From Escherichia phage EC.W1-9, in sequence record PP445227.1: 40,616 nucleotides of DNA, one strand, 5' to 3'. How positions within the stretch are numbered: the first letter of the stretch is position 1; each line of letters starts with the position of its first letter. The notes below the pieces were generated by a model. The model was given only the letters and a program-made list of their open reading frames with translations. It was not told where the DNA came from and searched no databases. The position numbers were made by a program, and so were the translations under genes. Below, one piece after another: positions 1-39,325 of this stretch.

Positions 1-164
1 GACTTAAACGCTACTACACCGGAAAAACATGTAAGCACGGACATGACAGTGAACGCTGGGTTTACAACGGACACTGTGTTGAGTGCACCATGGAATCAAA
101 CCGTCGTATCAGGGCAGAGATTAAGCAGATCATGATTAATTCCTCCCCACAACATTCAAGCTGA
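1..164 (+). CDS. 3' end of a small zinc-ribbon-like protein (5'-truncated at window edge)
   Basis: Open frame with codons starting at nt 3 (…YTGKTCKHGHDSERWVYNGHCVEC…), stop TGA 162-164; CxxH…CxxC spacing; followed by SD-like AGCGGAG and the ATG at 180. Confidence 0.4.
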   Translation, partial: LKRYYTGKTCKHGHDSERWVYNGHCVECTMESNRRIRAEIKQIMINSSPQHSS

Positions 165-179
165 TAGCGGAGATTAATC

Positions 180-995
180 ATGAGCAGACATGCAACAGAT
201 TGGGCCTGGGAGACAGATCCAGGTAGCTCATCATTAAAGCTCATACTGCTCTCGATGGCTGACAGAGCCGATGAATATAACCTCTGCTACCCCAGCATAG
301 AACGCCTCGTTAAAGACACTTGCCTGAATAAAAAAACCGTGCAGGCCGGGCTTATATCGCTCATGAAAATGGGGCTTATTTCAGATACCGGAGAGAGAAA
401 GGGAGCGACAAAAAGAGTGCGGGTTTTCTCTCTTAATATAACCAAAAACGGGAACATTAAAGGCAACCGGGAGGGGGGCAATGAACCCGAAAACGGTAAT
501 GTTACCGAAAACGGGAATATACCCAAAAACGGGATGTTGAATGATCCCAAAAACGGGATGTTGAATGATCCCAAAAACGGGATCCAGAACCAGTCATATA
601 ACCAGTCATTTAACCAAGAGAGGGAGAGCAGGACAAAAAGCGGGGATTCTGTGCCTCATGACCCCGGAGCAAACAACGCCGTGATGAATAACTTTGTTCC
701 TCCTGGTGGGCCAGGGCAATTAGGCAAATTTGTCATGCATGAACAATGGCAGCCATCAGATGACTTTCTTCGGAAAAGCTCATTGCAGGGGATCTACCTG
801 GACAGTCTGCCAACGGCACAGGAACTTGCAGAGTTCAGAATTTACTGGATGGCTGAGGGTAAGGCATACCATCAGGCACAGTGGGAGCAGAAGCTGGCAA
901 GGCGGCTGCAGATTAGCAGACAGAAGCAATCAACATTACCTGATAACAACGTTCCGCACTGGAACAGCCCTGAAGCATGGGAGGATTTCTTGTGA
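180..995 (+). CDS. Replication initiation protein, lambda O-like (N-terminal winged-helix DNA-binding domain, internal iteron-encoded repeats)
   Basis: 271-aa ORF; N-terminus LKLILLSMADRADEYNLCYPSIERL typical of phage replication initiators; middle encodes PKNGMLNDPKNG repeats from DNA iterons; lies directly upstream of a P-like gene. Confidence 0.75.
   Translation: MSRHATDWAWETDPGSSSLKLILLSMADRADEYNLCYPSIERLVKDTCLNKKTVQAGLISLMKMGLISDTGERKGATKRVRVFSLNITKNGNIKGNREGGNEPENGNVTENGNIPKNGMLNDPKNGMLNDPKNGIQNQSYNQSFNQERESRTKSGDSVPHDPGANNAVMNNFVPPGGPGQLGKFVMHEQWQPSDDFLRKSSLQGIYLDSLPTAQELAEFRIYWMAEGKAYHQAQWEQKLARRLQISRQKQSTLPDNNVPHWNSPEAWEDFL
441..615. repeat. Iteron array (candidate replication origin) inside the O-like gene
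   Basis: At least six direct repeats of core AAAACGG(G/T)A at 444, 489, 507, 525, 549, 573 (two exact 24-bp copies CCCAAAAACGGGATGTTGAATGAT), followed by duplicated ACCAGTCAT(A/T)TAAC. Confidence 0.65.
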
Positions 996-1777
996 ACAAC
1001 GTTTTTACCGCGATACAAAACCGTGACGGAGAAGCCCTTTCTCGCATGTCAGGTTATGAGCATCAGTACGTCAACAATGACAATGTGGTGAACATGTCAG
1101 CAGAGAGGCTTGTTGATGCCCTTTTTAAACAGCTGAAACAACTGTTTCCGGCGGCAGTGGTAACCAACCTGAAGACGCCAGAGCAGGAAGTTGCTGCAAA
1201 ACAGCAGTGGATTGCTGCGTTTGCCGAAGGGGGGATCCGAACCCGTGAACAGGTTTCTGCTGGTATGCGCCACGCCCGCGCCAGTGAATCTCCGTTCTGG
1301 CCGTCTCCAGGGCAATTTATCAAGTGGTGCAAAGACAGCAAGATGGTTCTTGGCGTCACCATTGACGATGTGATGGCGGAGTTTCACCGGTACAGCAAGG
1401 AAAAAAGTTTATATCCTGGTGGTCCCGAAAGATTCCCGTGGCGACATCCGGTTATGTACTGGGTCGTATGTGATACCCGCCGTGCAATGTATCAGCGCCA
1501 GCTTAGCGAGATTGAGGTTGAGAAACACGCACGCAGGCTGCTCGATGATTGGGCGAAAAAGGTGGCTTCCGGACAGCAGATACCCGATCCGGTGATCAGC
1601 ATACAGGCAAAGCCAGAGCCCATGAGTACGCCTCCGGACACAGGGAGAGACGTTTACCATCCACCAGGGCGAAGTTTCGGGTGCATGCCTAACGCCGCCA
1701 CCCTTGGGGGAATAACACCGGCGCAGTGGCTGATGGAGGAATACAGGCGGGGAAAGGCGGCAGGATTTATCAAGTAA
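992..1777 (+). CDS. P: Replication protein P-like (DnaB helicase loader)
   Basis: Segment GGIRTREQVSAGMRHARASESPFWPSPGQFIKWCKD closely parallels lambda P (NGITTMEQVNAGMRVARRQNRPFLPSPGQFVAWCRE); GTG at 992 overlaps the O stop (GTGA) with GGAGG 7 nt upstream. The track's ATG at 977 is an alternative start. Confidence 0.8.
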   Translation: MNNVFTAIQNRDGEALSRMSGYEHQYVNNDNVVNMSAERLVDALFKQLKQLFPAAVVTNLKTPEQEVAAKQQWIAAFAEGGIRTREQVSAGMRHARASESPFWPSPGQFIKWCKDSKMVLGVTIDDVMAEFHRYSKEKSLYPGGPERFPWRHPVMYWVVCDTRRAMYQRQLSEIEVEKHARRLLDDWAKKVASGQQIPDPVISIQAKPEPMSTPPDTGRDVYHPPGRSFGCMPNAATLGGITPAQWLMEEYRRGKAAGFIK

Positions 1778-1814
1778 TACCAGCGCGATAGCGCATTTTT
1801 TTACGTCTATATGA

Positions 1815-1829
1815 TTACCTGGAAGGTAA
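1815..1829. promoter_or_regulatory. Palindromic site TTACC-N5-GGTAA (ATTACCtggaaGGTAAT)
   Basis: Perfect inverted repeat in the P/DUF1064 intergenic region. Confidence 0.5.
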
Positions 1830-1876
1830 TAAAATGTTCTAATCTCTATTGATTTCATGTCTTATGTGGTTTTTAA

Positions 1877-1891
1877 TTACCTAAGGGGTAA
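1877..1891. promoter_or_regulatory. Palindromic site TTACC-N5-GGTAA
   Basis: TTACCtaaggGGTAA overlapping the SD region of the gene starting at 1895. Confidence 0.5.
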
Positions 1892-1894
1892 ATC

Positions 1895-2242
1895 ATGAGA
1901 AAACAGATACAGGCTCTTGGTCGACTCAAAACAGGCCAGATGAACAAAACAGAATCTGCGTATTGCCAGCACCTTGAGCTGCGTAAACGTGCAGGGGAAA
2001 TCGCCTGGTATCGATTCGAGGGTATCAAGCTGCGGTTAGCTAATAACACGTTCTATACGCCCGATTTCGCTGTGATGCTCGCCACCGGCGAGATGGAGCT
2101 GCACGAAGTGAAAGGGGGATTCTGGACCGATGACGCCAGAGTGAAAACCAAAGTCGCCGCAGATCAGTATCCGTTCCGAATCATCGGGGTAACGGTTAAA
2201 CCAAAGAAAGCAGGTGGTGGCTGGAACATCGAAGAGTTCTGA
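1895..2242 (+). CDS. DUF1064-family phage protein
   Basis: 115-aa ORF with good SD (AAGGGG); sequence style of the DUF1064 proteins that follow replication genes in lambdoid phages (recalled, not searched). Confidence 0.6.
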   Translation: MRKQIQALGRLKTGQMNKTESAYCQHLELRKRAGEIAWYRFEGIKLRLANNTFYTPDFAVMLATGEMELHEVKGGFWTDDARVKTKVAADQYPFRIIGVTVKPKKAGGGWNIEEF

Positions 2243-2303
2243 ATCGACGATCTATTTAGTTATCAATGTAATCAATAAGTTATGTGGATAAGCGAGGGTA
2301 AAG

Positions 2304-2783
2304 ATGGAAAGTAATATCAAAGGGTTAGTTGCCGCCGGGCATGAGATGGCTTCGGAACTGAAAGCAGAATGTGGTGCCGTTGATATGCGCAGTGTGGCAA
2401 AGCTGATCAGCGATTTGGCAACGCAACTGGAAGTGCAACTGGTGCGTGCTAATGCGCTGGCGGCGGAGAGTGCGGCAATGCATGAAACTATTGAAGCCGT
2501 TCGGAGTGTTGCGGATAACTCCAGTGGAATTGCCGGATGGCATTTGAATGGCGATATCGCTACATGGGAAGAGATTCTTCCTGAAATTAACGATATCGAA
2601 ACTCCAGCCACCGATGCTTTCCTGGCTGAAGTACGTGCGCAGGCGTTTAATGACCTTTGCTCGGCGTTCGTTAAACACGCGAATCTCGCGGGAATGGATG
2701 ATGGTGAGCTAGTGAGGCTTAAATATGCGACGGACGCCCTGCTGCATTGTGCGGAACAGCTTCGCAAAGGAGGCAACCAGTGA
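2304..2783 (+). CDS. Hypothetical protein (nin-region-like)
   Basis: 159-aa ORF, SD GAGGG upstream, same strand as the operon. Confidence 0.55.
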   Translation: MESNIKGLVAAGHEMASELKAECGAVDMRSVAKLISDLATQLEVQLVRANALAAESAAMHETIEAVRSVADNSSGIAGWHLNGDIATWEEILPEINDIETPATDAFLAEVRAQAFNDLCSAFVKHANLAGMDDGELVRLKYATDALLHCAEQLRKGGNQ

Positions 2784-3325
2784 GTGTAACGGTTGAAAAG
2801 ATTGATGTGTTGTCATTCGTTATAACCGGTGCAGAGAGACTAGATCCGGTTCGAGTGATGATTGAAAACTATGAACCTGGAAAGGGAAGAATCACCATCA
2901 CCTGCTACGGAAAAGCGTGGACTGCGGCTTGGTTTGCTATGGGCGGTGATGATGTGCAGACGTTCATTAAGCGAGTCAGCAACGACTATCTAATCGACAA
3001 TTTCGACCCTCAACTGCGAAGCACGGTCGACGATGACAACGATGCAAATCTGCTTTTCGTGAAGTCAGAAATCATAAAGTTACGAAGAGAGAGAGAAATC
3101 GACGCCGTACTGGCTCGCGAAATGTGGTACGAGGCGGAAAACGCCGATGACGTAAAAGAAAGCTGCTGCTGTTTCGGCGTCGGTAACAAACTACTGAATC
3201 TCTTTGGTGATGAGCCGTGGTATGCCAACTGGCCAACGATACCAAACCCGAAATACCAGTATCTGGAACGCGTACTTAATGCAGTGAGAGACGGTCTTAA
3301 GCAAATAGAGAAGGTGGAACCATGA
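2780..3325 (+). CDS. Hypothetical protein
   Basis: GTG at 2780 preceded by AAGGAGG and overlapping the upstream stop; the track ORF begins earlier at 2747. Confidence 0.5.
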   Translation: MSVTVEKIDVLSFVITGAERLDPVRVMIENYEPGKGRITITCYGKAWTAAWFAMGGDDVQTFIKRVSNDYLIDNFDPQLRSTVDDDNDANLLFVKSEIIKLRREREIDAVLAREMWYEAENADDVKESCCCFGVGNKLLNLFGDEPWYANWPTIPNPKYQYLERVLNAVRDGLKQIEKVEP

Positions 3326-3621
3326 CTGTATGTCTTATTGATAAACGTCGACGTGGGCAACAAATACCATCTGTTGAAATGCCGAATCACACATGGTTTT
3401 GCGTACTTGATATCGATGGCATGGATAAGTTTGTTGACACTCGTCATTACTGCGATACCGCAACAGCTACTCCGGCGAAAGCAAAGAAAATGGCTGCTCT
3501 GATAGAAAACTGGACTCCACCTGATGGTTGGTGCAATGGGAATGATCGGGATTGGCATGAAAAAATGAAGGGCTATATCTGCGATTTTTTACGTAAATGC
3601 AACGGATTCAGGGTGATGTGA
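3322..3621 (+). CDS. Hypothetical protein
   Basis: ATG overlaps upstream stop (translational coupling), SD AAGGTGG. Confidence 0.5.
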   Translation: MTVCLIDKRRRGQQIPSVEMPNHTWFCVLDIDGMDKFVDTRHYCDTATATPAKAKKMAALIENWTPPDGWCNGNDRDWHEKMKGYICDFLRKCNGFRVM

Positions 3622-3622
3622 C

Positions 3623-4387
3623 ATGAGCAAGATTGACTATCAGGCACTGCGTGCCAAGGCAGAAAAAGCAACGTGTGGTGTATGGTCGCTCGAATATGGA
3701 GAGAGCCGATTTGATGGTGATGATGCGCTAATTCATCGTGAAGTTGCTGGATATATTCCTATTTGCAGAATTGAAGGAGCGCATCCAGAAAGCGGTTTCG
3801 ATGAAGATTTCCAAATGGAACAGCAGGCCAATGCTGAATTCATCGCCGCAGCCAGTCCATCTACCGTGCTGGCACTGCTGGATGAACGGGAAAGAAACCA
3901 GCAATACATCAAACACCGTGACCAGGAGAACGAGGATATTGCGCTAACGGTAGGGAAGCTGCGTGTTGAGCTTGAGGAAGCAAAATCAAAACTCAACGAG
4001 CAACGCGAGTATTACGAAGGTGTTATCTCGGATGGAAGTAAGCGTATTGCTGAACTGGAGAAAAGCGAAGAGCAACTCATTAACGAGCGTGACCATGCTG
4101 AGTCTGCTTTAGCTGATATGTATTTTGCAGCAACCGGGGATAGGCCTGAGTGGAGTAACTGGTTCGGTTTTTCAGATGCAGTAGATGCCGTAGTTGACAG
4201 AATTGCTGATTTAGAAGCTAAACAGCCATCGCCAGTAGTACCTGAAGGACTGATTAAAGCGGTGCGTTTTTATGAGCAGGTAAAACGTGAGAACCCGCCA
4301 GTCGAAACCGGAGCATGGAAAGACGCTGTTGACTGGGTGCTCAAAGAGGCTTGCCAGGCTGTAAACATTGGCATCAAAGGAGAGTGA
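3623..4387 (+). CDS. Ead/Ea22-like protein
   Basis: 254 aa, acidic coiled-coil centre, sequence style of lambdoid Ead/Ea22 family proteins (recalled). Confidence 0.55.
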   Translation: MSKIDYQALRAKAEKATCGVWSLEYGESRFDGDDALIHREVAGYIPICRIEGAHPESGFDEDFQMEQQANAEFIAAASPSTVLALLDERERNQQYIKHRDQENEDIALTVGKLRVELEEAKSKLNEQREYYEGVISDGSKRIAELEKSEEQLINERDHAESALADMYFAATGDRPEWSNWFGFSDAVDAVVDRIADLEAKQPSPVVPEGLIKAVRFYEQVKRENPPVETGAWKDAVDWVLKEACQAVNIGIKGE

Positions 4388-4388
4388 T

Positions 4389-4904
4389 ATGGCGTTAACA
4401 CACCGCGAACTCTGTCAGATTGCGTACAAGTTCCTTAAGCGCAACGGGTTCAAGGTTTGTTTTCATGACCGCTTTATAGCTGTAACCAGTACCGGAGAAC
4501 AGCCAGATGCTATGGGATTCAGAAATTCAGCATCATGCCTGATAGAGGCGAAGTGTTCTCGTGCTGACTTGTTGGCAGATAGAAAAAAGCGTTTTCGTAA
4601 AAATCCGTCTCTTGGAATGGGCGACTGGCGATTCTTTATTAGTGAGCCAGGAATTATTTCAATTGAGGATTTACCACCTGGCTGGGGATTACTTCACGTT
4701 GTTAACGGAAGAGTACGGAAAGTACATGGGTGGCCCAAGGGTAATTGCTGTTGGGGTAATCCTGACGATAAGCCATTTACTGGAAATAAGCAGGTTGAAT
4801 GCGATTACATGTTATCTGCATTAAGGCGCATGGAGTTGAGAGGGCACCTTAATGAAATATATGACGGTGTAATTGTTAATAAGAAAGAAGGAAACGCAGC
4901 ATGA
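4389..4904 (+). CDS. Putative PD-(D/E)xK-type nuclease
   Basis: ATG at 4389 after AAGGAGAG; motif QPDAMGF…CLIEAK fits the D…E-x-K catalytic spacing. Confidence 0.45.
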   Translation: MALTHRELCQIAYKFLKRNGFKVCFHDRFIAVTSTGEQPDAMGFRNSASCLIEAKCSRADLLADRKKRFRKNPSLGMGDWRFFISEPGIISIEDLPPGWGLLHVVNGRVRKVHGWPKGNCCWGNPDDKPFTGNKQVECDYMLSALRRMELRGHLNEIYDGVIVNKKEGNAA

Positions 4905-5830
4905 TCACTATTACCAAAGAACGCCTGCTGACAATCCAGCAGTGGCGCGAAACATACGGACCTGGTAGCAACGTTGTACTGCCAGCAGAAGAAGCGGAAG
5001 AACTGGCACGAATTGCTCTGGCATCGCTGGAGCAGAATGCACTATCTGGCAACTCTCGGCTTATTCCTGGTGAAGTGTTGTCCGCAATCCGGGAGGTTGC
5101 CAAGATTCGTGCCGATTTCGATGATTTTGACGGTGACAGGCGAGGTATCGGTGATTGTCTGGATGAGGCCGAGCAAGAGCTTATCGTTACCATTAACAAA
5201 TATGCCAGTCAGTTGGCAGCAGAACCGATAGCGACTAATGACGTTCGAGAGCAGCAGACAGCCGTTCCGCCAGTTCCGGAAATACAGGATGATGTCGCGC
5301 AAGCAATTGAAAATCTCAAGCAGAAGTTAGTGGAATGCAATCGCTATAACTACTGCGCAGATGCAGTTAAAGGCGTAGAGGATGCCTGCCACGCTGCCAT
5401 GCTTCATAGTGCCGAACCTGCAAGTAATCATGAAGAGTTGCCGCTTGATTATCTCCAAGGTCAAAAAGATGGTCTTGAATGGGCTGCGCAGCTTGCAGAA
5501 GCAAATCACCCACAAACTGGCGACTGGCTTTACGATGACCCGCTGGAGGTGGCTAAAGCTATCAGAAAAGGTCCTGACATGCCCGAATTCGATGGACCAA
5601 CTCCGGCAACTCCGGATGGTTGGATAAGCTGTAGTGAGCGAATGCCGAACGATAAACAGTATGTTTGGTGTTGGGGTAAGTCTTACGGCTGGACTGAGTG
5701 CGATACCTTCGAAGGGTATTACGATTGGTCGAGAAACAAATGGTGGGCAGTTACTGACGATGGGGAAGAACCGGCATCGAAAGTAACCCACTGGATGCCG
5801 CTACCAGAACCGCCGCAGGAGGTGAAGTGA
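4901..5830 (+). CDS. DUF551-domain phage protein
   Basis: 309 aa; C-terminal DGWISCSERMP…THWMPLPEPP resembles the DUF551 signature (recalled). Confidence 0.55.
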   Translation: MITITKERLLTIQQWRETYGPGSNVVLPAEEAEELARIALASLEQNALSGNSRLIPGEVLSAIREVAKIRADFDDFDGDRRGIGDCLDEAEQELIVTINKYASQLAAEPIATNDVREQQTAVPPVPEIQDDVAQAIENLKQKLVECNRYNYCADAVKGVEDACHAAMLHSAEPASNHEELPLDYLQGQKDGLEWAAQLAEANHPQTGDWLYDDPLEVAKAIRKGPDMPEFDGPTPATPDGWISCSERMPNDKQYVWCWGKSYGWTECDTFEGYYDWSRNKWWAVTDDGEEPASKVTHWMPLPEPPQEVK

Positions 5831-5952
5831 TGAACAAGTGCAACGCTCTGCTTTATGCCATGGTGATTGGTTTCGGCCTGGTTGCTGGTATCCGGGTTTA
5901 TATTACCTGGGAGTCATTAATCAATCTGGCGTGGAGTGCGATTCGTGGCTAA
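5830..5952 (+). CDS. Small hydrophobic protein (40 aa), not in the ORF track
   Basis: ATG overlaps upstream stop (TGATG), GGAGGTGA SD; translation MNKCNALLYAMVIGFGLVAGIRVYITWESLINLAWSAIRG has one predicted TM helix. Confidence 0.45.
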   Translation: MNKCNALLYAMVIGFGLVAGIRVYITWESLINLAWSAIRG

Positions 5953-6247
5953 ATCCCCCGCAGAACGCAAAGCCGCGCAGCGCGCTCGGCAGTCCGCCGC
6001 CGGTGAGCGCAAAATTGAACTGGTGCTGGATAAGCAGGAGCAGGAAATGCTGGCGCGGAACTGCGCCGCCCGGCGCCCTGGTCGCGATCCCTATGAAATG
6101 GCCGAGTACATCGCGCTGCTGATCCGCCAGGATGATGCACGTGTGCGCGGGCGTATAAAATCGATCAGCAGAAACTTTGCGGTAAGTGCGGCGAGAGAGT
6201 TCCCGTTAATTCATGCCCGTGTAATGGTGACTCGCAATGCTGGGTGA
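5936..6247 (+). CDS. Hypothetical basic protein in a locally GC-rich segment
   Basis: 103-aa ORF from GTG; Arg/Ala-rich; start uncertain and overlaps the small ORF. Confidence 0.35.
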   Translation: MRFVAKSPAERKAAQRARQSAAGERKIELVLDKQEQEMLARNCAARRPGRDPYEMAEYIALLIRQDDARVRGRIKSISRNFAVSAAREFPLIHARVMVTRNAG

Positions 6248-6331
6248 CTAAAGGCTGGCATGAAACGAAATTAATAGTGTGACATGTCACGAGTAGATTA
6301 TGCATGATGAATTTGATGGGTTTTGAATACT

Positions 6332-6358
6332 GCCGCCAACTATGGCGGCTTTATTTTG
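6332..6358 (+). terminator. Rho-independent terminator-like hairpin upstream of the terminase genes
   Basis: GCCGCC-aactat-GGCGGC followed by TTTATTTTG. Confidence 0.55.
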
Positions 6359-6368
6359 CATGGTACTA

Positions 6369-6383
6369 TTACCACAACGGTAA
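6369..6383. promoter_or_regulatory. Palindromic site TTACC-N5-GGTAA
   Basis: TTACCacaacGGTAA; a weaker second copy TTACCatggtGGTTA at 6387-6401. Confidence 0.45.
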
Positions 6384-6400
6384 CAATTACCATGGTGGTT

Positions 6401-6997
6401 ATGATGCCTGCTGAACCTAAAACCTATAAACGCAAATCAACGCAATTTAAGCCACTAACCGCAATGCAGGAGGCTTATTGCCAGTCATACATCAAAACGC
6501 CTGAAAACCAGACTCAGGCAGCGATTAACGCAGGATTCTCCCCAAATACAGCGGCAGTTAAAGCCAGTGTCATGATGCGCGATGAACGCATTCAAAAACG
6601 GATTGCCGAGTTGATGGAGGAGCGCAACAAACGAATGCGCGTCAGTGCCGATTACGTTCTCATGCGCCTGGTGGAGATCGACCAGATGGACGTGATTGAT
6701 ATCCTCAATGACGATGGGAGCCTTAAGCCAATCCGCGAGTGGCCGAAAATCTGGCGCACTACGCTTAGTGGCTTTGATCTGTCATCGACCATCATGAACA
6801 TGAACGAGGATTCGATAGAGACAATTCTCAAAAAAATTAAATGGCCTGACAAGGTGAAGAACCTCGAACTGATTGGTAAGCACGTCGACGTCAATGCATT
6901 CAAAGAACGCCTGGATGTTAATGTGAATGTGACAATTGCTGATCGCATAGCGGCAGCCAGGAAGCGACTCAAAGAACGTCAGGATGGTAATCAGTGA
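6401..6997 (+). CDS. Terminase small subunit
   Basis: AYCQSYIKTPENQTQAAINAGFSPNTAAVKAS region typical of phage small terminase; directly upstream of the large terminase. Start taken at the ATG at 6401 rather than the TTG at 6323. Confidence 0.7.
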   Translation: MMPAEPKTYKRKSTQFKPLTAMQEAYCQSYIKTPENQTQAAINAGFSPNTAAVKASVMMRDERIQKRIAELMEERNKRMRVSADYVLMRLVEIDQMDVIDILNDDGSLKPIREWPKIWRTTLSGFDLSSTIMNMNEDSIETILKKIKWPDKVKNLELIGKHVDVNAFKERLDVNVNVTIADRIAAARKRLKERQDGNQ

Positions 6998-8463
6998 CAG
7001 ATACAGCGTTATCTCCTGAAGAGCAGTTGATCGAGGATATTGCAGGGTTCACTCACGATCCGCTTGGCTATGCCCTCTATGCGTTCCCGTGGGGGGAAGA
7101 GGGGACTGAACTGGCACATGCTACCGGCCCACGTCAGTGGCAGGCTGATGCGTTCCGAGAGATACGTGATCACCTGCAGAATCCAGAGACGCGCTATCAG
7201 CCGCTTATGCTGGCACGCGCTTCTGGTCACGGTATTGGTAAATCCGCATTCATCTCAATGCTGATCAACTGGGGCATGTCCACTTGCGAGGATTGTAAGG
7301 TCGTGGTGACCGCCAACACCGACAACCAGCTACGAACGAAGACCTGGCCGGAAATTATCAAGTGGTCGAACCTTGCTATCACGAAAGACTGGTTTACCTG
7401 TACCGCTACTGCGATGTACAGCAATGATCCTGGGCACGACAAGCGGTGGCGAGCTGACGCAATCCCCTGGTCTGAGCACAACACTGAGGCATTCGCCGGA
7501 CTACACAACGAGCGCAAACGCATCATCGTGGTATTCGATGAAGCGTCGAACATTGCGGATCTGGTGTGGGAAGTTGCTGAGGGTGCGCTTACGGACGAAG
7601 ACACTGAGATTATCTGGGTGGCGTTCGGAAACCCTACACGTAATACCGGGCGTTTTCGCGAATGTTTCCGCAAATACAAACACCGCTGGAAAACTGCGCA
7701 GATTGACAGCCGGACGGTGGAAGGTACTAACAAACAGCAGTTGCAGAAATGGGTTGATGACTACGGGGAAGACAGCGACTTCGTTAAAATCCGTGTGCGC
7801 GGCATATTCCCTGATGCATCTGAATTGCAGTTTATCCCTACCGGTCTTACTGATGAGGCAATGAAACGGGTGGTAACCGCTGCGCAGGTTGCACATGCTC
7901 CGGTGATAATCGGCGTTGACCCGGCATACTCCGGAGTTGATGACGCTGTGATATACCTGCGGCAGGGGCTGCACAGTAAGGTGCTGTGGACTGGCAACAA
8001 GACCACTGACGATCTGATAATGGCGAAGCGTATCGCTGACTTTGAAGACCAGTACCAGGCTGACGCAGTGTTCATCGACTTCGGTTACGGAACTGGTCTG
8101 AAGTCAATCGGTGACGGCTGGGGTCGTACATGGCAACTTGTTCCGTTCGGTGGCGCGTCTACTGACCCGCAGATGCTCAACAAGCGTGGGGAGATGTTCA
8201 ACTCATGCAAGACATGGCTGAGGCTGGGCGGGATGCTGGATGACCAGGAAACAGCAGACGACCTGTCGACGGCAGAGTACAAAGTTCGCGTGGACGGTAA
8301 AATCGTTATCGAACCGAAGGAAGATATCAAAGAGCGACTTGGGCGTTCGCCGGGTAAAGGTGATGCGCTGCTGCTAACGTTCGCCTTCCCGGTAGCCAAG
8401 AAAACTAATGACCCACGGCAGCAGCAGGGGAAAGCTATTACTGAGTACGATCCGTTTTCATAA
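6994..8463 (+). CDS. Terminase large subunit
   Basis: 489 aa; Walker A-like ARASGHGIGKSAF; acidic nuclease-type C-terminal half; GTG start overlaps the small-subunit stop. Confidence 0.8.
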   Translation: MTDTALSPEEQLIEDIAGFTHDPLGYALYAFPWGEEGTELAHATGPRQWQADAFREIRDHLQNPETRYQPLMLARASGHGIGKSAFISMLINWGMSTCEDCKVVVTANTDNQLRTKTWPEIIKWSNLAITKDWFTCTATAMYSNDPGHDKRWRADAIPWSEHNTEAFAGLHNERKRIIVVFDEASNIADLVWEVAEGALTDEDTEIIWVAFGNPTRNTGRFRECFRKYKHRWKTAQIDSRTVEGTNKQQLQKWVDDYGEDSDFVKIRVRGIFPDASELQFIPTGLTDEAMKRVVTAAQVAHAPVIIGVDPAYSGVDDAVIYLRQGLHSKVLWTGNKTTDDLIMAKRIADFEDQYQADAVFIDFGYGTGLKSIGDGWGRTWQLVPFGGASTDPQMLNKRGEMFNSCKTWLRLGGMLDDQETADDLSTAEYKVRVDGKIVIEPKEDIKERLGRSPGKGDALLLTFAFPVAKKTNDPRQQQGKAITEYDPFS

Positions 8464-8467
8464 AGTT

Positions 8468-9073
8468 TTAAGCAGCATTGTCTGTGTTGCGATTGTTCCT
8501 TGAGTTAAACTTATTTGCAATTCTGGTATTGGATTTTATTTTTTCTTCTGCAAGTTCTTTTTCAAGCGCCATTATTTTTTCAATAAGGGAATCTCTTTCC
8601 TGCAAAAAAGAATTCAAAGACTCTTGGTGCTTGATTAAATCATTTTTATAGAATTGAATCTCAGACTCAAACTCAACCTTAACTCTGTCGTATGTAATGT
8701 CCCTTTGTGCCTCAAGCTTACGCAATTCTATGGCGTTTTTAACATCCCTGAGGCTTTTGTTGTGTTTGAAGTTATCGATGTTCTGTAGTGGAATTTTTTG
8801 AAACATCACCACTATATTGTTAAACCATGGAACTATTACACACAGCGCGAATGCACATAAAGCTGGATATAAGAGTGAGTGGTACGCATCACTATGGGAA
8901 GATATATAATTTATTTTTTCTTCAATTCCTGACTTACTGAAGAATAAAAATAATAGTGGATTCCAGTTAAAAGAACACCACGAAAACACAAATGCCCCAA
9001 GTGCTGGGTTGCGGACTCTCTCTGACGCTGTGCTAATAGCCGATGATGCGATCTCTTTAAATTGCTCGAACAT
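8468..9073 (-). CDS. Accessory (moron) membrane protein with C-terminal coiled coil
   Basis: 201-aa ORF on the opposite strand to the late operon, visibly AT-rich; two hydrophobic helices then a Lys/Glu-rich heptad region; palindromic site 33 bp upstream. Confidence 0.6.
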   Translation of the reverse strand: MFEQFKEIASSAISTASERVRNPALGAFVFSWCSFNWNPLLFLFFSKSGIEEKINYISSHSDAYHSLLYPALCAFALCVIVPWFNNIVVMFQKIPLQNIDNFKHNKSLRDVKNAIELRKLEAQRDITYDRVKVEFESEIQFYKNDLIKHQESLNSFLQERDSLIEKIMALEKELAEEKIKSNTRIANKFNSRNNRNTDNAA

Positions 9074-9105
9074 GTCTAAACCAGATGTTAAATGTTTTTG
9101 TTATC

Positions 9106-9120
9106 TTACCTTCAAGGTAA
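9106..9120. promoter_or_regulatory. Palindromic site TTACC-N5-GGTAA
   Basis: TTACCttcaaGGTAA upstream of the minus-strand moron gene. Confidence 0.5.
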
Positions 9121-9323
9121 CGTTCAGTCACCAGGCAAAAAAATGCCCGGCGAACCGGGCGAACTGGAAGCAATGAGTTATGCCTTCCGTGGCTGTACTG
9201 GTTTACAGCATGAAGTCATCGCAATGGCGTCCTGCTGTAAAAAGGGCGGTGATAGTCCTTCAAGGGAAACAGTCACCGCCAATCCCCTGGAACTTCTGGC
9301 ATCACGGTCCTTAGGCGTGATTC

Positions 9324-9400
9324 TGGCGTGGCATGCAGGATTCGAACCTGCGACCAACCGCTTAGAAGGCGGTTGCTCTGTCCAACTGAGCTAATGCCAC
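9324..9400 (-). tRNA. tRNA-Arg (anticodon UCU)
   Basis: Reverse complement folds as a cloverleaf: acceptor GTGGCAT/ATGCCAC, D-arm GCTC…GAGC, anticodon stem ACCGC/GCGGT with loop CTTCTAA, T-arm GCAGG-TTCGAAT-CCTGC, discriminator G, encoded CCA; 77 nt. Confidence 0.85.
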
Positions 9401-9729
9401 AACGCTGAGAGCACTGGTTTGGCTCGATATCAGGTAGGGTGGAACAGCCCGCTAATATCCAATGCTCTCATCGTTGTACCCTCGTCTCTTCCGAGGCGTC
9501 ACACCGAATCGCCGGGATGGTGAATCCCCGTGCGCGGAATAAAACCGCTCGACTTGCACATTCCGGCTACCTGGTTCGTTTGCCCGAGCAAGGGAGGGTG
9601 CCCCTTAAACGTATCCAGACCGCTATCGTCGCATGTGCCATACGCCGTACTGCTCAAAATAAAAGCTCACTCCACCTGTTCAATTTAACGACAAGCCAGT
9701 CAGGTTAGTAACCGGAATGAACTCTTTGG

Positions 9730-9744
9730 TTACCTTAAAGGTAA
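9730..9744. promoter_or_regulatory. Palindromic site TTACC-N5-GGTAA
   Basis: TTACCttaaaGGTAAT upstream of the head-gene cluster. Confidence 0.5.
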
Positions 9745-9834
9745 TAATTCGTGCATTAAATGTCAACTGTCTACGATAAATAAATCATATGTGGTTAAAT
9801 TGGTAATAATTTAATTGCGTACGGAGTCATTGAT

Positions 9835-10041
9835 ATGTGCATGGGTAGCTCACCATCAGTGCCTGCAACACCAGAAGTTCAGGCAGCACCACAGGAGCAG
9901 GATGCCGCCGTTGTTGATGCCCGCGACGAAGAAACTCGTCGCCGTCGCGCTGCTGCTGGTCGTAGTTCTACGCTGCTTACCGGTTCTCAGGGCGACACAT
10001 CAACCGCTAATACCAGCGGTAAAACGCTGCTTGGTCAGTAA
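9835..10041 (+). CDS. Small hydrophilic protein
   Basis: 68-aa ORF, GGAG 7 nt upstream of the ATG; low-complexity, Arg/Ala-rich. Confidence 0.45.
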   Translation: MCMGSSPSVPATPEVQAAPQEQDAAVVDARDEETRRRRAAAGRSSTLLTGSQGDTSTANTSGKTLLGQ

Positions 10042-10055
10042 CCGGAGTCATTGAA

Positions 10056-11735
10056 ATGGCGGAAACAACTAAAGAGCGATTGAACAAACAGTTCGCACAA
10101 CTTGAAAGCGAGCGTCAATCGTTCGAGCCGCACTGGCGCGAGTTGAGTGATTACATCAACCCGCGTGGTTCCCGCTTTCTGACTTCTGAGGTCAACCGTA
10201 ACGATCGACGCAATACACGTATTATTGATTCGACCGGGACTATGGCGGCGCGCACTCTCGCCAGCGGCATGATGTCAGGCATCACAAGCCCCGCGCGTCC
10301 GTGGTTTCGCCTGGCTACGCCAGATCCTGAAATGATGGATTATGGCCCTGTTAAGTTGTGGCTTGAGGCGGTGCAGAACCGCATGAACGATATGTTCAAT
10401 AAGTCGAATCTCTATCAGTCTCTGCCGCAGTTATACGGAAGCCTCGGCACATACAGCACTGGTGCAATGGCAGTGCTGGAGGATGACGAGGACATCATTC
10501 GCACAATGCCATTCCCGATAGGCAGTTACTACCTGGCTAACTCACCTCGTGGCAGTGTGGACACCTGTTTTCGCAAGTTCTCTATGACTGTTCGTCAGCT
10601 TGTTCAGGAGTTCGGGCTAAATAACGTCAGCGAATCCGTAAAAAGCATGTGGGAAAGCGGCACCTACGAGAAGTGGATTGAAGTGATGCATTCGGTTTAC
10701 CCGAACATTGACCGCGATGCATCGAAGCTGGATAGCAAGAACAAGCCATTCAAATCGGTTTATTACGAGGTTGGTGGCGATAACGACAAGTTGTTGCGCG
10801 AGTCCGGATTCGATGAGTTTCCAATTATGGCTCCGCGCTGGGAAGTTAACGGCGAAGATGTTTATGGATCATCATGCCCGGGTATGCTGGCGCTTGGACC
10901 TGTTAAGGCATTGCAGCTTCTCCAGAAGCGCAAGTCGCAGTTGATTGATAAAGCCACCAATCCGCCGATGGTTGCTCCGACTTCCCTCAAGAATCAGCGC
11001 GCCTCCCTTCTTCCTGGCGACATCACGTATATCGATCAGATTACTGGTCAGGATGGCTTCAGGCCTGCTTATCTGGTTAACCCCAGTACAGCAGATTTGG
11101 TGGCAGACATTCAGGACACTCGTCAAATCATTAACAGCGCCTACTTCGTCGATCTGTTCATGATGTTGCAGAACATCAATACCCGCTCAATGCCTGTTGA
11201 AGCGGTGATCGAAATGAAAGAAGAAAAGCTTCTGATGTTGGGGCCGGTTCTGGAGCGTCTGAACGACGAATGTCTTAATCCTCTCATTGACCGCGCTTTC
11301 TCGATGATGGTGCGTAAAAACATGCTGCCGCCACCGCCTGACGCGATGGAAGGTATGCCCCTGAAGGTCGAATACATTTCTGTCATGGCTCAGGCGCAGA
11401 AGTCTATCGGCCTGTCCAGTCTGGCGTCCACGGTTAACTTCATTGGTCAACTTGCGCAAGCGAAACCAGAAGCTTTCGACAAACTCAACGTTGATCAGGC
11501 GATCGATGCATTCGCTGATATGTCCGGAGTGTCTCCAACCGTCATTGTTCCGCAGGAACAGGTTGAGCAGGCTCGCCAGCAACGGGCACAGCAACAACAG
11601 CAGCAACAAATGATGGCGATGGGGATGGCGGCGGCACAGGGTGCCAAGACGCTAAGCGAAGCTAAAACTTCGGATCCGAGTGTTTTGTCAGCTATGGCGA
11701 ATGCAGTTAGTGGTCAGGGTGGGCAATCACAATGA
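10056..11735 (+). CDS. Portal (head-to-tail connector), T7 gp8-like
   Basis: 559 aa, follows the terminase; Gln/Met/Ala-rich C-terminal tail (QQQQQQQMMAMGMAAAQGA) parallels the T7 gp8 C-terminus. Confidence 0.75.
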   Translation: MAETTKERLNKQFAQLESERQSFEPHWRELSDYINPRGSRFLTSEVNRNDRRNTRIIDSTGTMAARTLASGMMSGITSPARPWFRLATPDPEMMDYGPVKLWLEAVQNRMNDMFNKSNLYQSLPQLYGSLGTYSTGAMAVLEDDEDIIRTMPFPIGSYYLANSPRGSVDTCFRKFSMTVRQLVQEFGLNNVSESVKSMWESGTYEKWIEVMHSVYPNIDRDASKLDSKNKPFKSVYYEVGGDNDKLLRESGFDEFPIMAPRWEVNGEDVYGSSCPGMLALGPVKALQLLQKRKSQLIDKATNPPMVAPTSLKNQRASLLPGDITYIDQITGQDGFRPAYLVNPSTADLVADIQDTRQIINSAYFVDLFMMLQNINTRSMPVEAVIEMKEEKLLMLGPVLERLNDECLNPLIDRAFSMMVRKNMLPPPPDAMEGMPLKVEYISVMAQAQKSIGLSSLASTVNFIGQLAQAKPEAFDKLNVDQAIDAFADMSGVSPTVIVPQEQVEQARQQRAQQQQQQQMMAMGMAAAQGAKTLSEAKTSDPSVLSAMANAVSGQGGQSQ

Positions 11736-12028
11736 CAGATTACGAAGACGATCAACTGAAAGAAGAAAACGCCCGTAAGCAACGTGACATGGCACAGCGT
11801 GAAATTGATGACATTCGCTTTGTCATGAGCAGTGAACAGGGGCGTCGCGTTGTCTGGTCTGTGCTGGAGAAAGGCCGGGTGTTTTCCGCTATCTCACCGA
11901 TGGACGCTATGGCAATGGCATTTAATGAGGGGCAACGCAATCTGGCGCTGGAACTGTTTCAGCGCGTTATGGCGCATTGCCCTGAACAGTATTTGAAGAT
12001 GGCCAAAGAGGCCAGTGAACAGGAGTGA
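11732..12028 (+). CDS. Hypothetical head-module protein
   Basis: 98 aa; ATGA overlap with the portal stop. Confidence 0.55.
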   Translation: MTDYEDDQLKEENARKQRDMAQREIDDIRFVMSSEQGRRVVWSVLEKGRVFSAISPMDAMAMAFNEGQRNLALELFQRVMAHCPEQYLKMAKEASEQE

Positions 12029-12030
12029 TC

Positions 12031-12726
12031 ATGAATTTATTTGAGCGTTTGCTGTATCGCCGTCTTTGCAATGAGCAACCAGTCGATGGTGGAGCAGCTC
12101 CGGCTGCGTCAGAACCGTCAGCGCCTGCAGGTGATAACCCTGCTCCAGTTGGTGATCCATCACAACAGGAAGGTGATAAGCCACAACCTGTTGCTGATGG
12201 CGATAAACCTGCTGATGACAAAAAGCCTGAAAACGATAAGCAGGATGAAAAAAAGGACGGCGATAAACCAGAGGGTGCGCCTGAGAAGTACGAGTTTCAG
12301 GCTGCCGAAGGCGTAGAGCTGGATACAGAAGCGTTGAAGGAGTTCGAGCCGGTGGCGCGAGAACTTAACCTGACCAACGAGCAAGCGCAAAAGCTGGTTG
12401 ATGCTTATCCGAAAATTCTGGCAGGTGTTCAGCAGCGCCAGGCAGAAGCCTGGCAGAAAACAACCGAGCAGTGGGCTGCGGATGTAAAAGCTGACAAAGA
12501 AATCGGTGGCGACAAGTTGATTTCTAACCTTAGCGCCGCACAGCGTGCGCTTGACCAGTTCGGGACACCTGAACTCAAAGAATATCTGAACACCACCGGG
12601 CTGGGTAATCACCCTGATCTGGTCAAAACGTTCGTGAAAATCGGAAAGGCTATGTCTGAAGATGGCATGGTCACCGGTGGTAATGAAGGCCAGCGTAGTG
12701 CGGCCGAAGTGCTCTATGGCAAATAA
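12031..12726 (+). CDS. Scaffolding protein
   Basis: Highly acidic Pro/Asp/Glu/Lys-rich N-terminus and helical C-terminus, between portal and capsid; ATG at 12031 after AGGAG. Confidence 0.65.
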   Translation: MNLFERLLYRRLCNEQPVDGGAAPAASEPSAPAGDNPAPVGDPSQQEGDKPQPVADGDKPADDKKPENDKQDEKKDGDKPEGAPEKYEFQAAEGVELDTEALKEFEPVARELNLTNEQAQKLVDAYPKILAGVQQRQAEAWQKTTEQWAADVKADKEIGGDKLISNLSAAQRALDQFGTPELKEYLNTTGLGNHPDLVKTFVKIGKAMSEDGMVTGGNEGQRSAAEVLYGK

Positions 12727-12740
12727 GAGAGGAGATAACA

Positions 12741-13727
12741 ATGTCTGTTAAAGGCTTAACTGCGCTAACGCTGGCTGACTGGGGTAAGCGCGTCGATCCA
12801 AATGGGAAAGTCGATAAGATTATCGAGCTTCTCAATCAAACTAACCCAATTCTTCAGGATATGCCTTTTGTTGAAGGAAACCTTCCTACCGGACACCGAA
12901 CCACCATTCGTTCTGGTTTACCTTCTGCTACCTGGCGTTTGCTGAACTATGGCGTACAGCCAAGCAAATCAACCACAGTGCAGGTCACCGATTCCATTGG
13001 CATGCTGGAAACCTATGCTGAAGTCGATAAGTCTCTGGCTGATCTGAACGGTAATACTGCCGAATTCCGTCTGTCTGAAGACCGAGCATTTATTGAAGCG
13101 ATGAATCAGGCGATGGCGCAGACACTGTTTTACGGTGATTCCAGCGTTAACCCTCAGCAGTTTATGGGACTGTCCTCCCGCTATTCCAGCCTGTCTGCGG
13201 GTAATGCTCAGAACATCATTGATGCTGGTGGCACGGGTACAGATAACACTTCAATCTGGTTAGTGGTGTGGGGCGAAAACACCGTGCATGGCATCTTCCC
13301 GAAAGGACAGAAGGCTGGCATTCAGATGGAAGATAAAGGCCAGGTGACACTGGAAGATGCTAAAGGCGGCAAGTACGAAGGTTATCGTACCCATTATAAG
13401 TGGGACAACGGGCTGACATTACGTGACTGGCGCTATGTAGTTCGTATCGCAAACATTGATGTCAGTAATCTTGACGCTCCTTCTACTGCCGCGAATATCG
13501 CAAAACTGATGATTCGTGCCCTTCATCGAATCCCAAATCGTGGGATGGGACGTCCTGTTTTCTACATGAACAGAACCATTAACGAAGTGCTTGACCTGCA
13601 ATCTCTGGAGAAGAGTTCTCTGGCGATCAGCGTGAAAGAGACAGAAGGCGAATGGTGGACAGCACTTCGTGGTGTGCCGATTCGTGAAACTGACGCACTT
13701 CTGGAAACAGAAGCCCGCGTGGTGTAA
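12741..13727 (+). CDS. Major capsid protein
   Basis: 328 aa, strong SD GAGAGGAG, follows the scaffold, stem-loop immediately downstream. Confidence 0.75.
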   Translation: MSVKGLTALTLADWGKRVDPNGKVDKIIELLNQTNPILQDMPFVEGNLPTGHRTTIRSGLPSATWRLLNYGVQPSKSTTVQVTDSIGMLETYAEVDKSLADLNGNTAEFRLSEDRAFIEAMNQAMAQTLFYGDSSVNPQQFMGLSSRYSSLSAGNAQNIIDAGGTGTDNTSIWLVVWGENTVHGIFPKGQKAGIQMEDKGQVTLEDAKGGKYEGYRTHYKWDNGLTLRDWRYVVRIANIDVSNLDAPSTAANIAKLMIRALHRIPNRGMGRPVFYMNRTINEVLDLQSLEKSSLAISVKETEGEWWTALRGVPIRETDALLETEARVV

Positions 13728-13743
13728 CGCCTGTTATTAACCT

Positions 13744-13763
13744 GTGGGCCGCAACAGGCCCAC
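13744..13763 (+). other. Stem-loop downstream of the capsid gene (GTGGGCC-gcaaca-GGCCCAC)
   Basis: 7-bp perfect inverted repeat; no clear U-run, so more likely an attenuator or RNA-stability element. Confidence 0.4.
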
Positions 13764-13778
13764 TAATGGAGAAAGAAG

Positions 13779-14216
13779 ATGATCACCGACAAACTGTTGA
13801 TGTTCTCCGAAGCACAGGCGGTAACTGATACCGCGGCTTCTACTGACGTAATCGATCTCGGTCCAATTGACGGAAACCGTCGCGATATCGGTGTGGGTTA
13901 CCCGCTTGAGTTTTGGGTGCTGGTTAACGAAGCCGCCACGGCAAGTGGTGAGGCAACTGTAAACATCCAGTTGCAGACGAGTGAGAATAACAGCTCATGG
14001 TCCACTATTTATGATAGTGGCGCACTGGCAAAGGCCACCCTGACAGCAGGTAAGCGAGTTGTTTCTGCAAAGGTGCCTGCCGGTGTTCAGCGATATCTGC
14101 GTGTTAACTACTCCGTCGCAACTGGCCCACTAACGGCTGGCAAATTCACTGCGGGTATCAATCTTGATGTTGATGCCAATACGCCGTATCCGATCCGCTC
14201 AAAAGTAACTGGTTAA
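13779..14216 (+). CDS. Hypothetical virion-associated protein (possible decoration protein)
   Basis: 145 aa, Thr/Ala/Gly-rich beta-type composition, immediately after the capsid gene. Confidence 0.45.
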   Translation: MITDKLLMFSEAQAVTDTAASTDVIDLGPIDGNRRDIGVGYPLEFWVLVNEAATASGEATVNIQLQTSENNSSWSTIYDSGALAKATLTAGKRVVSAKVPAGVQRYLRVNYSVATGPLTAGKFTAGINLDVDANTPYPIRSKVTG

Positions 14217-14226
14217 GGTGATATTG

Positions 14227-14562
14227 ATGTCAGGTGAGAAACCAAGATACCGCGTTCTGCGCCTCTCTCATATCCATAACACTCTGTGGCCGGAGGGGGC
14301 AGAAATCGAATACGAAGGTGAGCCTGGTAGCGCACTGGAACCTGTTAACGATGCAGCCAGACAGGCAAAAGCAAAAGTTGCAGGAAAGGTGTCAATGGCA
14401 GCAACCAGCACCAAAATCATCAACGATGTGTCAGATGATGGTGAACTGGATAAGCTCCGTGAAGAGTACGAATTGCTCTTTAACGAGAAGCCACACCATA
14501 ACGCCAAAGCCGAAACGCTCCGCGAGAAGATCGCAGATAAGCGTAAAGAACTGGGCGTGTAA
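14227..14562 (+). CDS. Hypothetical protein
   Basis: ATG at 14227 after AAGGTGA; acidic/basic helical C-terminus. Confidence 0.45.
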   Translation: MSGEKPRYRVLRLSHIHNTLWPEGAEIEYEGEPGSALEPVNDAARQAKAKVAGKVSMAATSTKIINDVSDDGELDKLREEYELLFNEKPHHNAKAETLREKIADKRKELGV

Positions 14563-14580
14563 GCCTCGCGAATCAGACAA

Positions 14581-14601
14581 GGGGCTTCGGCCCCTTTATT
14601 G
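14581..14601 (+). terminator. Hairpin with TTCG tetraloop and short T-run
   Basis: AGGGGC-ttcg-GCCCCT followed by TTATT. Confidence 0.45.
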
Positions 14602-14618
14602 CAGGAGTATAGAAACTT

Positions 14619-24870: not shown

Positions 24871-24871
24871 G

Positions 24872-25723: not shown

Positions 25724-25730
25724 TCAAACA

Positions 25731-27623: not shown

Positions 27624-27889
27624 AGCGATCACCTTTGTAGTTAGGTTAATCACCACCGCTGAGACCAATCAGATGGTGGTGAACTGTGCAGAGTTGGTCT
27701 TACCGGCTACAAAGGAACCCGGCGCACCTTTCGGTGCCCCCACACAGCCCACCATAGAATAGGTGCGCTTTACACATAAAAAAACCGCTTATGCGGCATA
27801 TGTGCCTCTGTAGTAATCCGGGAGACCAATCCCGGCACTGGATTTTGCCAGTGCCCGATTACTATGGCACAAGAGGAGTGCAATGTAAA

Positions 27890-31587: not shown

Positions 31588-31663
31588 CATCATATATAAT
31601 TATTTTAATGTTAATGCCGTCTTCTTGTTGGCGGCTTATTTGTGAAAATGGAATGAGTTATTT

Positions 31664-39306: not shown

Positions 39307-39325
39307 AACTTGTTACCTCGGTCTG

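Follow-up and report, generated by a model that had tools for sequence, protein, structure and literature searches.

How are the late genes of a prophage switched on when no late activator can be recognized in its genome? The question is raised by positions 5953-6400 of Escherichia phage EC.W1-9 (record PP445227.1; the whole stretch of 40,616 nucleotides that was analysed is referred to below as the window), in which an earlier note had seen a likely late-control checkpoint ahead of the terminase genes. In a megablast search of phage records, the segment 4800-7100 matched Escherichia phages TL-2011b, ZX5 and phiV10 and, more distantly, Salmonella phage epsilon15, and the annotated maps of these four phages agree with the window gene for gene, which identifies the window as an epsilon15/phiV10-like (Uetakevirus) genome. 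Phages of this type serve as reporters for O157 and Salmonella and often occur as prophages in E. coli, and we know of no description of their late switch. A 66-codon open reading frame (ORF) seems to run from the end of the window into its start when the two are joined by eye; if so, the sequence would be a closed circle, one phage genome.

At 5953-6400, the early-right operon of this Uetakevirus prophage meets its packaging/late operon. The order of terminator, repressor site and terS is as in epsilon15. The reading as an early/late boundary is supported, and the terminator, the ATTACC sites and the ORF 5936-6247 listed in the earlier note were all found in their places. As in epsilon15, phiV10, TL-2011b and ZX5, a gp49-like gene is followed by the terminator, the repressor site and terS, but the window differs from the epsilon15 type by 18 extra nucleotides (a mini-ORF) between a palindrome at the end of the gp49-like gene and the terminator. 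It also differs from these relatives in that its gp49 homologue is frameshifted and in that it lacks the second palindrome, which in most Uetakevirus loci stands after terL, beside the terminator of a leftward moron. The gene of the small terminase, terS (6404-6997, + strand), which is the first late/packaging gene, was assigned by homology to the annotated terS of TL-2011b, ZX5, phiV10 and epsilon15, and is followed by terL (6994-8463). Its start is most likely ATG 6404, as in the phage records, and not TTG 6323, as called by PGAP, since the latter would put the terminator inside terS. An Rfam scan of 5900-6450 gave no match.

We scanned every ORF within 180-6282 and, of the other ORFs that are small or unassigned, the majority (all but a few) against Pfam and PHROG. 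Among the scanned ORFs there was no Q-type antiterminator (PF03589, PF06530, PF06323), no sigma factor and no named late activator; the families encountered were those of replication proteins, Ead/Ea22, DUF551, DUF1064, PerC-like, Ant, Rep, Cro-like and lysis proteins, and unknowns. This agrees with the earlier failure to recognize a Q-type or any other late activator, and the proteins encoded within 2304-6247, for which an HMM search had been suggested, gave no antiterminator or sigma-like match in the scans of 180-6282. Nor was there, in the palindrome-terminator interval of the relatives, a conserved late promoter of the kind that a Q-type mechanism requires after the gp49-family gene. Matches to boxA, an element of N-type antitermination (CGCTCTTWA, at most one mismatch), numbered 11 as against 15.7 expected, and none of them was near P_L or P_R. 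The ZX5 paper contains nothing on late control, and no transcriptome of a Uetakevirus turned up in a search of the literature.

The early-right operon ends at a predicted intrinsic (rho-independent) terminator on the + strand (6332-6358), the top-listed + strand terminator site within 1-12000. Its stem, GCCGCCA/TGGCGGC (6332-6349), has 7 bp, six of which are G-C pairs, and a 4-nt loop (AACT / ACTA region), and is followed directly by the T-tract TTTATTTT (6350-6357); the folding energy of the hairpin is -13.8 kcal/mol. The site aligns with 39646-39672 of epsilon15 (AY150271.2), which is annotated there, computationally as far as the record shows, as a rho-independent terminator. It is kept across genera, and the changes seen in Buttiauxella preserve the pairing via G-U. 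Its hairpin and U-tract make 6332-6358 a canonical intrinsic terminator, and it is strong-looking, as the earlier note had claimed. No strong terminator was found on the + strand from 6404 to 25730, so one late transcript could span the terminase and structural genes.

Behind the terminator, the hexamer ATTACC occurs at 6368-6373 and 6386-6391. In the window as a whole it was found 46 times versus 15.9 expected, a number reached in none of 100 shuffles. Each of the two hexamers at the junction forms the left arm of a palindrome of 17 bp, ATTACC-N5-GGTAAY. A search of the whole window for ATTACC-N5-GGTAAT with up to two mismatches gave 18 sites versus 1.2 expected; 15 of the 18 are intergenic, as placed by us against the ORF list, and the sites occupy the immunity region and most transcription-unit boundaries. 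The first site at the junction, O1 (ATTACCACAACGGTAAC, 6368-6384), has one mismatch and overlaps the -10 hexamer and the predicted start of the promoter described below, and the second, O2 (ATTACCATGGTGGTTAT, 6386-6402), also with one mismatch, overlaps the Shine-Dalgarno sequence GGTGG (6394-6398) and borders on the start codon of terS. Across genera, a second ATTAC[CT]-N5-GGTAA-like site is kept at a distance of 18-20 bp from O1, centre to centre.

The same motif surrounds the prophage repressor gene, rep (39460-40044, - strand), with operators at 39325, 39387 and 40099 (0-1 mismatch) and at 40484 (2 mismatches); the promoter-like sites P_L/O_L (39325-39403) and P_R/O_R (40099-40173) flank the gene. 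In epsilon15, positions 12-27, a protein_bind feature labelled 'repressor', align with O1, and the label is shared by this pre-terS site and five others at homologous places; the sites of the window are positional homologues of those at 12-27, 2931-2947, 32479-32632 and 35906-35922, all of which are, as far as the records show, computational annotations. The immunity operators of epsilon15 have the same consensus as the motif of the window. Rep was assigned by its homology to the repressor of the Salmonella podophage SPC32H (PDB 5d50; E 4e-42 over residues 1-190) and to PHROG transcriptional regulator/repressor families. The SPC32H Rep is reported to occupy palindromic sites as a tetramer and to be dismantled by the antirepressor Ant (PMC9638917). 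The window encodes homologues of both proteins, with ant at 26931-27668 and C4 antisense RNA and isrK ahead of it, and a tetrameric Rep fits the paired O1 and O2; the operator sequence of the window, however, was derived from the repeats and not from the SPC32H work. We thus regard O1 and O2 as predicted operator-type sites of Rep, of the same kind as those at P_L, at P_R, at the antirepressor promoter and at about a dozen other intergenic places, and Rep would be expected to bind to them. The ATTACC sites can therefore be retained as putative regulatory protein-binding sites, given the operator motif and the 'repressor' label in epsilon15, but not as late-specific ones, because the same motif is found genome-wide.

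The segment between the terminator and the operators probably contains the promoter of the packaging/late operon, an extended -10 sigma-70 promoter on the + strand (6361-6369) with TG at 6361-6362, G at 6363 and TACTAT at 6364-6369, and with no -35 element; transcription is predicted to start near 6376. TGn stands here before a hexamer with A in the second and T in the sixth position, as in other promoters of this class. The sequence TGnTA[CGT]TAT followed by ATTAC[CT]-N5-GGTAA showed no variation ahead of terS among 9 sequences representing 9 genera or types, and it persists together with the operator even in loci where something else has taken the place of the terminator, of the palindrome or of the upstream gene. 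The -10 hexamer and O1 overlap by 2 nt ('..TAT|TACC'), a geometry that recurs at P_L (TTGACA-17-AATTAT|TACC), at P_ant (TTGAAA-18-TATTAT|TACC) and at a leftward promoter (9773-9744). On these grounds we infer promoter activity at 6361-6369. As the -35 element is lacking and TACTAT has only 4 of 6 consensus matches, the promoter may be weak and may need a helper. Alternatively, the 'TAT' of the hexamer could be conserved as a piece of an extended operator and not as part of a promoter.

The reading that we prefer, with a probability of about 0.6, is that the junction is a terminator-operator-promoter module gated by Rep and needs no Q-type factor. Early transcription would stop at the intrinsic terminator 6332-6358, and the -35-less extended -10 promoter TGgTACTAT (6361-6369) would drive terS-terL, with the transcript probably continuing through the structural genes to the next strong terminator at 25730. 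With O1 lying over the -10 hexamer and the start site and O2 over the ribosome-binding site, a tetrameric Rep of the SPC32H type bound to both would shut the late operon directly in the lysogen, and upon induction Ant would release all units gated by Rep. No activator would then be required for the late operon. A module of terminator and operator would in this way gate nearly every transcription unit of the genome. The same order of terminator and operator is found at 40451/40484, behind the cro-like gene, at about 1784/1814, behind the P-like gene, at 34155/34243, ahead of int, and at 9160/9121 on the minus strand. Its repetition at these other unit boundaries indicates that 6332-6402 is a generic module and not a dedicated late checkpoint, and in this respect the likely late-control checkpoint of the earlier note was not borne out. 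Two gaps indicate that read-through or a further factor may still be needed. The lysis cluster (from 31664), which lies behind a strong terminator (31616-31635), has no operator-like site; thus, gating by Rep leaves at least one late unit unexplained, and this unit may depend on read-through or on another factor. We also found no pair of rightward promoter and operator with the above geometry immediately ahead of the portal gene, and the operator at 9729 fits the leftward promoter.

Dispersed operators of this kind have precedents in the C1 operators of P1 and the stoperators of mycobacteriophage L5, where one repressor has a dozen or more intergenic sites, including sites before late genes, that are located right after terminators or over start sites. 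The L5 sites differ in being asymmetric and orientation-dependent, whereas those of the window are symmetric 17-bp palindromes; unlike in P1, no Lpa-type late activator was found in the window, and the repressors are unrelated.

The gene upstream of the terminator is of a different kind. The ORF 5936-6247 is real, with a G+C content of ~0.60 as against ~0.50 nearby, and represents the front (5') part of a frameshifted pseudogene (5945-6282, + strand) of the epsilon15 gp49 / N15 gp46 family (PHROG 536). An alignment with TL-2011b and ZX5 revealed a 1-nt deletion in the A-run 6172-6174 (AAA for AAAA); the intact gene would cover 5945-6282 and encode 112 aa. The product of the window retains residues 1-76, which comprise the ribbon-helix-helix (RHH) part; beyond them the reading frame is shifted until a stop codon at 6245-6247, so that the zinc ribbon is lost. 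An identical copy in an ST648 prophage is labelled 'frameshifted' by PGAP, and the allele is 100% identical in 24 complete E. coli genomes among those listed, which indicates a real mutation of the lineage and no read error. A rescue by programmed frameshifting was considered and rejected, as no X XXY YYZ slippery heptamer was seen by eye around 6172 and PGAP calls a pseudogene.

Intact homologues have 112 aa, with a basic N-terminal helix, an RHH domain and a C-terminal zinc ribbon with four Cys residues. WP_001130062.1 is an intact member of the family, and the strain 2017.15.01CC carries an intact allele. The family shows the strand, helix, helix arrangement of the RHH (MetJ/Arc/CopG) superfamily, and in its C-terminal third Cys79, Cys82 and Cys99 are invariant and accompanied by a fourth Cys, a conserved set that points to a zinc ribbon. 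The family is large (786 hits at 90% clustering, 143 clusters at 50%), and the PHROG that it matches, 536, is named 'transcriptional regulator'. It has no matching model in Pfam or NCBIfam, a BFVD fold search matched only a fragment of the family itself, and all source names of its members among those listed are 'hypothetical', 'uncharacterised' or 'phage protein'. A TraR/DksA-like zinc finger was rejected, as the profile matches reached only E 0.3-0.5 and the Cys spacing differs. The ORF proposed earlier as a candidate regulator is thus GC-rich, as described, and the proposal was a fair guess, since the family is one of DNA-binding proteins, but what the window carries is a frameshifted pseudogene. 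The protein may modulate the boundary in the intact relatives, and its gene, placed at the end of early operons, is for that reason still a candidate late modulator; the full-length protein is not functional in the window.

A perfect 12-bp palindrome, GTGACATGTCAC (6279-6290), overlaps the stop codon with which the gene 5945-6282 ends (TGA, 6280-6282). The sequence GTGAC-NN-GTCAC was also found at or adjoining the 3' end of the gp49-family gene in epsilon15, N15 (gp46), ZF40, an IMG/VR contig (L228) and many prophages, and in Vibrio-type relatives it lies 11-19 nt upstream of the terS start. Vibrio phage K308, N15 and ZF40 have three perfect copies each, as against about 0.04 expected per genome. 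From this distribution, 6279-6290 is probably the recognition site of the RHH/zinc-ribbon protein. A literature search for the palindrome sequence gave no paper containing it. Late promoters of the P1 Lpa type consist of a -10 hexamer and an inverted repeat centred near -22 that replaces the -35 element. With the palindrome placed at -22, only the window and ZF40 would accord with such a promoter, and we did not adopt this reading; a -10-like hexamer follows the palindrome by 3 nt in the window (TAGATT) and in ZF40 (TATAAA), and in none of epsilon15, the type C/D loci, K308 and N15.

The half-sites of the palindrome are the same as those of matS, a 13-bp site (GTGACRNYGTCAC; PMC6907758), and the fold of the gp49 family resembles that of MatP. 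In every copy seen, however, the phage site has 12 bp and its centre only 2 bp, against 3 bp in the centre of matS, and the gp49 family has a zinc ribbon where MatP has a four-helix bundle and a coiled coil. Homology to MatP was rejected (hhalign probability 0.2%; no MatP among the PDB profile matches). It is conceivable, although we would not expect it, that the gp49/N15-gp46 family and its palindromes form an undescribed phage boundary system, which would set the early-to-late transition by bridging sites or by blocking and releasing RNA polymerase. Such a system would place a few matS-like sites in each genome, frequently as pairs spaced by 2.3-3.1 kb, beside terminators or just before terminase or lysis genes, and would extend over several unrelated groups of temperate phages, namely Uetakevirus, N15-like phages, Vibrio siphophages, ZF40 and some P2-like phages. 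If it exists, the window would be a natural knock-out, with the gene frameshifted and the second site absent.

The interval between the palindrome and the terminator varies among the relatives. It is 23 nt long in epsilon15, 41 nt in the window and 227 nt where it holds a 70-aa gene of PHROG 1541, or it contains a LexA box and a umuD-like moron. In the window it carries a mini-ORF of eight codons on the + strand (6300-6326; ATG CAT GAT GAA TTT GAT GGG TTT TGA, MHDEFDGF*), which corresponds to the start and the last six codons of the 70-aa gene and is a remnant of it. About 100 loci have the mini-ORF and about 70 the full gene, with a shared C-terminus DEFDG[FL]*; the epsilon15 type has none, and a 1-nt deletion breaks the mini-ORF in 6 loci. 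By its sequence, the 41-nt interval is a gene remnant, and neither a promoter nor a pause module. A Q-like PR'-qut-tR' layout at 6271-6358, either TTAATA-17-TAGATT, whose spacer would hold the palindrome, or GTGACA-18-CATGAT, was rejected for the same reason and because the interval varies in the relatives.

Could the gp49-family protein itself be the missing late regulator in the intact phages? By binding to one palindrome where its own gene ends and to a second after terL, it might cause a Q-like read-through, or act as a roadblock or insulator that seals terS-terL together with the terminators, and the window would then be late-defective or re-wired. The place of the gene is suggestive: it is the last gene of the early operon, ahead of the lysis or terminase genes, in Uetakeviruses, K308 and ZF40, and it follows gene A in a P2-like Yersinia phage, and such a distal position in early operons across unrelated phages is the classic one for a late regulator. 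The RHH fold with a zinc ribbon is confident, and palindrome and gene co-occur in distant phages at 70-100 times the chance level. The palindromes are often located between the end of a gene and the terminator behind it, or precede a start codon by 9-23 nt (that of terS in K308 and L229), and the two palindromes of the relatives bracket terS-terL, each beside a terminator. The arrangement also recalls that of lambda (Q, PR', qut, tR'), with the gene of a small zinc-containing DNA-binding protein, a short region, a strong terminator and the late genes. However, the gp49 family is RHH, has no sequence or fold relation to Q (families of Q-lambda, Q82 and Q21) and has no Pfam match. No conserved promoter or pause element accompanies the palindrome, and its distance from the terminator and the content of the interval, a gene remnant of variable length, change from 23 nt to 41 nt, to the 70-aa gene or to the LexA-controlled umuD-like moron. 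Moreover, N15 has its own Q (gp40), the Yersinia phage has, beside the gp49 homologue, another small gene (71 aa) that is named 'transcriptional regulator' and by its position alone corresponds to ogr of P2, palindromes of ZF40 and N15 also lie inside unrelated genes, and the presence of the frameshift allele in the 24 listed complete E. coli genomes suggests that the gene is dispensable for prophage maintenance. We therefore consider this role of the protein rather unlikely.

A translation-sensitive gate is less probable still, and we would give it little credit. A ribosome ending the mini-ORF (or the 70-aa gene) would mask the 5' arm of the hairpin and allow read-through to terS, whereas untranslated RNA would terminate. 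Ribosomes near a hairpin reduce termination efficiency, and the stop codon of the mini-ORF precedes the terminator stem by 5 nt, a spacing found in every lineage despite differing spacers (ATACT, CAATG, ATGCG, CGCAG, ATACG), which suggests a possible coupling to translation termination; the start codon, an SD-like purine run and the DEFDGF* of the mini-ORF are kept in four genera. Against it, the mini-ORF is missing from epsilon15-type genomes and frameshifted in the 6 loci mentioned, its Gly codon is a mutational hot spot (G/V), and it is conserved at the nucleotide level (GATGAATTTGATGG) as much as at the peptide level; a deletion remnant is the simplest reading. It is highly improbable that the palindrome, the ATTACC region or both are a pac or cos recognition site of the terminase and no transcription signal at all. 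The region does adjoin terS, as does the palindrome of the Vibrio-type phages, and in Uetakeviruses two palindromes flank terS-terL; but ATTACC-N5-GGTAAT is the operator motif of the immunity region and is dispersed over the genome, the palindromes of N15 and ZF40 are distant from the terminase genes and cos, and the public records start at arbitrary and different points, that of phiV10 right after the stop codon and that of epsilon15 after the terminator.

Gating by Rep thus remains our preferred reading of the junction, which looks like an ordinary, largely pre-annotated module of a known phage genus, with the gp49-family gene and its palindrome being the only new-looking part. If Rep directly gates each transcription unit, including the terminase operon, a Q-like activator of these phages may simply not exist. 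The pair of a conserved, unnamed DNA-binding protein and its site at the early/late boundary could be the missing modulator, and its natural inactivation in the lineage of the window allows the inducibility of prophages with the intact and the frameshifted gene to be compared.

The start of terS has been placed at two positions. RefSeq/PGAP annotates it at TTG 6323 (6323-6997, 675 nt), so that terS would read through the terminator (6332-6358) and both putative Rep operators, O1 (6368-6384) and O2 (6386-6402). Phage records place it at ATG 6404 (6404-6997, 594 nt), in agreement with the conserved Shine-Dalgarno sequence GGTGG. RNA folding predicted a hairpin at 6371-6399, formed by CCAC...GUGG plus GGUAA/UUACC, within which the terS Shine-Dalgarno sequence is paired; its GGUAA/UUACC part corresponds to the right half of O1 and the left half of O2. 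The left arm of this hairpin would be missing from RNA that is initiated near 6376. We therefore speculate that terS might be translated poorly from read-through RNA, and well from promoter-proximal RNA.

Just before the terminator lies a mini-ORF of 8 codons (6300-6326; MHDEFDGF and a stop), whose stop is 5 nt ahead of the terminator stem. In relatives, two genes, of 70 aa (PHROG 1541) and 85 aa (PHROG 2100), end with the same C-terminus and the same stop-to-stem spacing, and the GATGAATTTGATGG of the mini-ORF region is kept across genera at the nucleotide level.

In most relatives a second GTGACATGTCAC copy is located immediately 3' of terL, directly adjacent to the terminator that belongs to a leftward moron (9646-9657 in L003, a relative with an intact gp49-family allele, and 2142-2153 in epsilon15, L005). 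Thus, in these genomes terS-terL is bracketed by two palindromes about 2.27 kb apart. No second copy was found in the window at 8464-8500, and the post-terL position is occupied there by a different moron, a 201-aa ORF (8468-9073, minus strand). Between terL and the portal gene there is also a tRNA-Arg(TCT) (9324-9400, minus strand). Both are transcribed leftward, apparently from a putative Rep-gated promoter (9773-9744), which would set this unit in opposition to the late operon.

Perfect GTGAC-NN-GTCAC palindromes occur at three sites per genome in N15 (L093; 28550, 33237 and 39269), ZF40 (L094; 5125, 7622 and 14944) and K308 (L092; 21342, 33227 and 35942), three unrelated phages with a gp49-family gene. 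Several pairs are spaced by 2.3-3.1 kb, and some sites fall in the interval from the end of a gene to a terminator. E. coli matS has the same half-sites as the phage palindrome.

The interval from the palindrome to terS is occupied in some relatives by a LexA box (TACTGT-N8-ACAGTA) that comes with a promoter of its own, together with a umuD-like or other small gene (L047, L052, L062, L063 and L065, at about 3336-3450; L097 and L099). The junction of early and late genes is a hot spot for morons under SOS control.

In the early region, three more genes (4368-5830) are frameshifted or partial according to the PGAP annotation of an identical ST648 prophage, and the nin-like region may be decaying in this prophage lineage. 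The first gene past the cro terminator, pieced together by eye, is a 66-aa ORF (40581-40616 joined to 1-165; PHROG 1081, motif CKHGH...CVEC), which could encode another small zinc-binding regulator. As this ORF apparently spans both ends, the window seems to represent a complete, closed circular genome. Apart from Rep, the Cro-like protein and Ant, the sole activator-type annotation among the scanned proteins of the window is a PerC-family "transcriptional activator" in the early-left operon (36389-36688, minus strand; Pfam PF06069, E 6e-7; PHROG 868).

Immediately upstream of the antirepressor gene (26931-27668, minus strand), Rfam identified a C4 antisense RNA (27672-27759, 78.6 bits) and the Hfq-binding RNA isrK (27778-27854, 74.7 bits), both on the minus strand. 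This is a Uetakevirus genome with a P1 immI/Gifsy-like ant control region.
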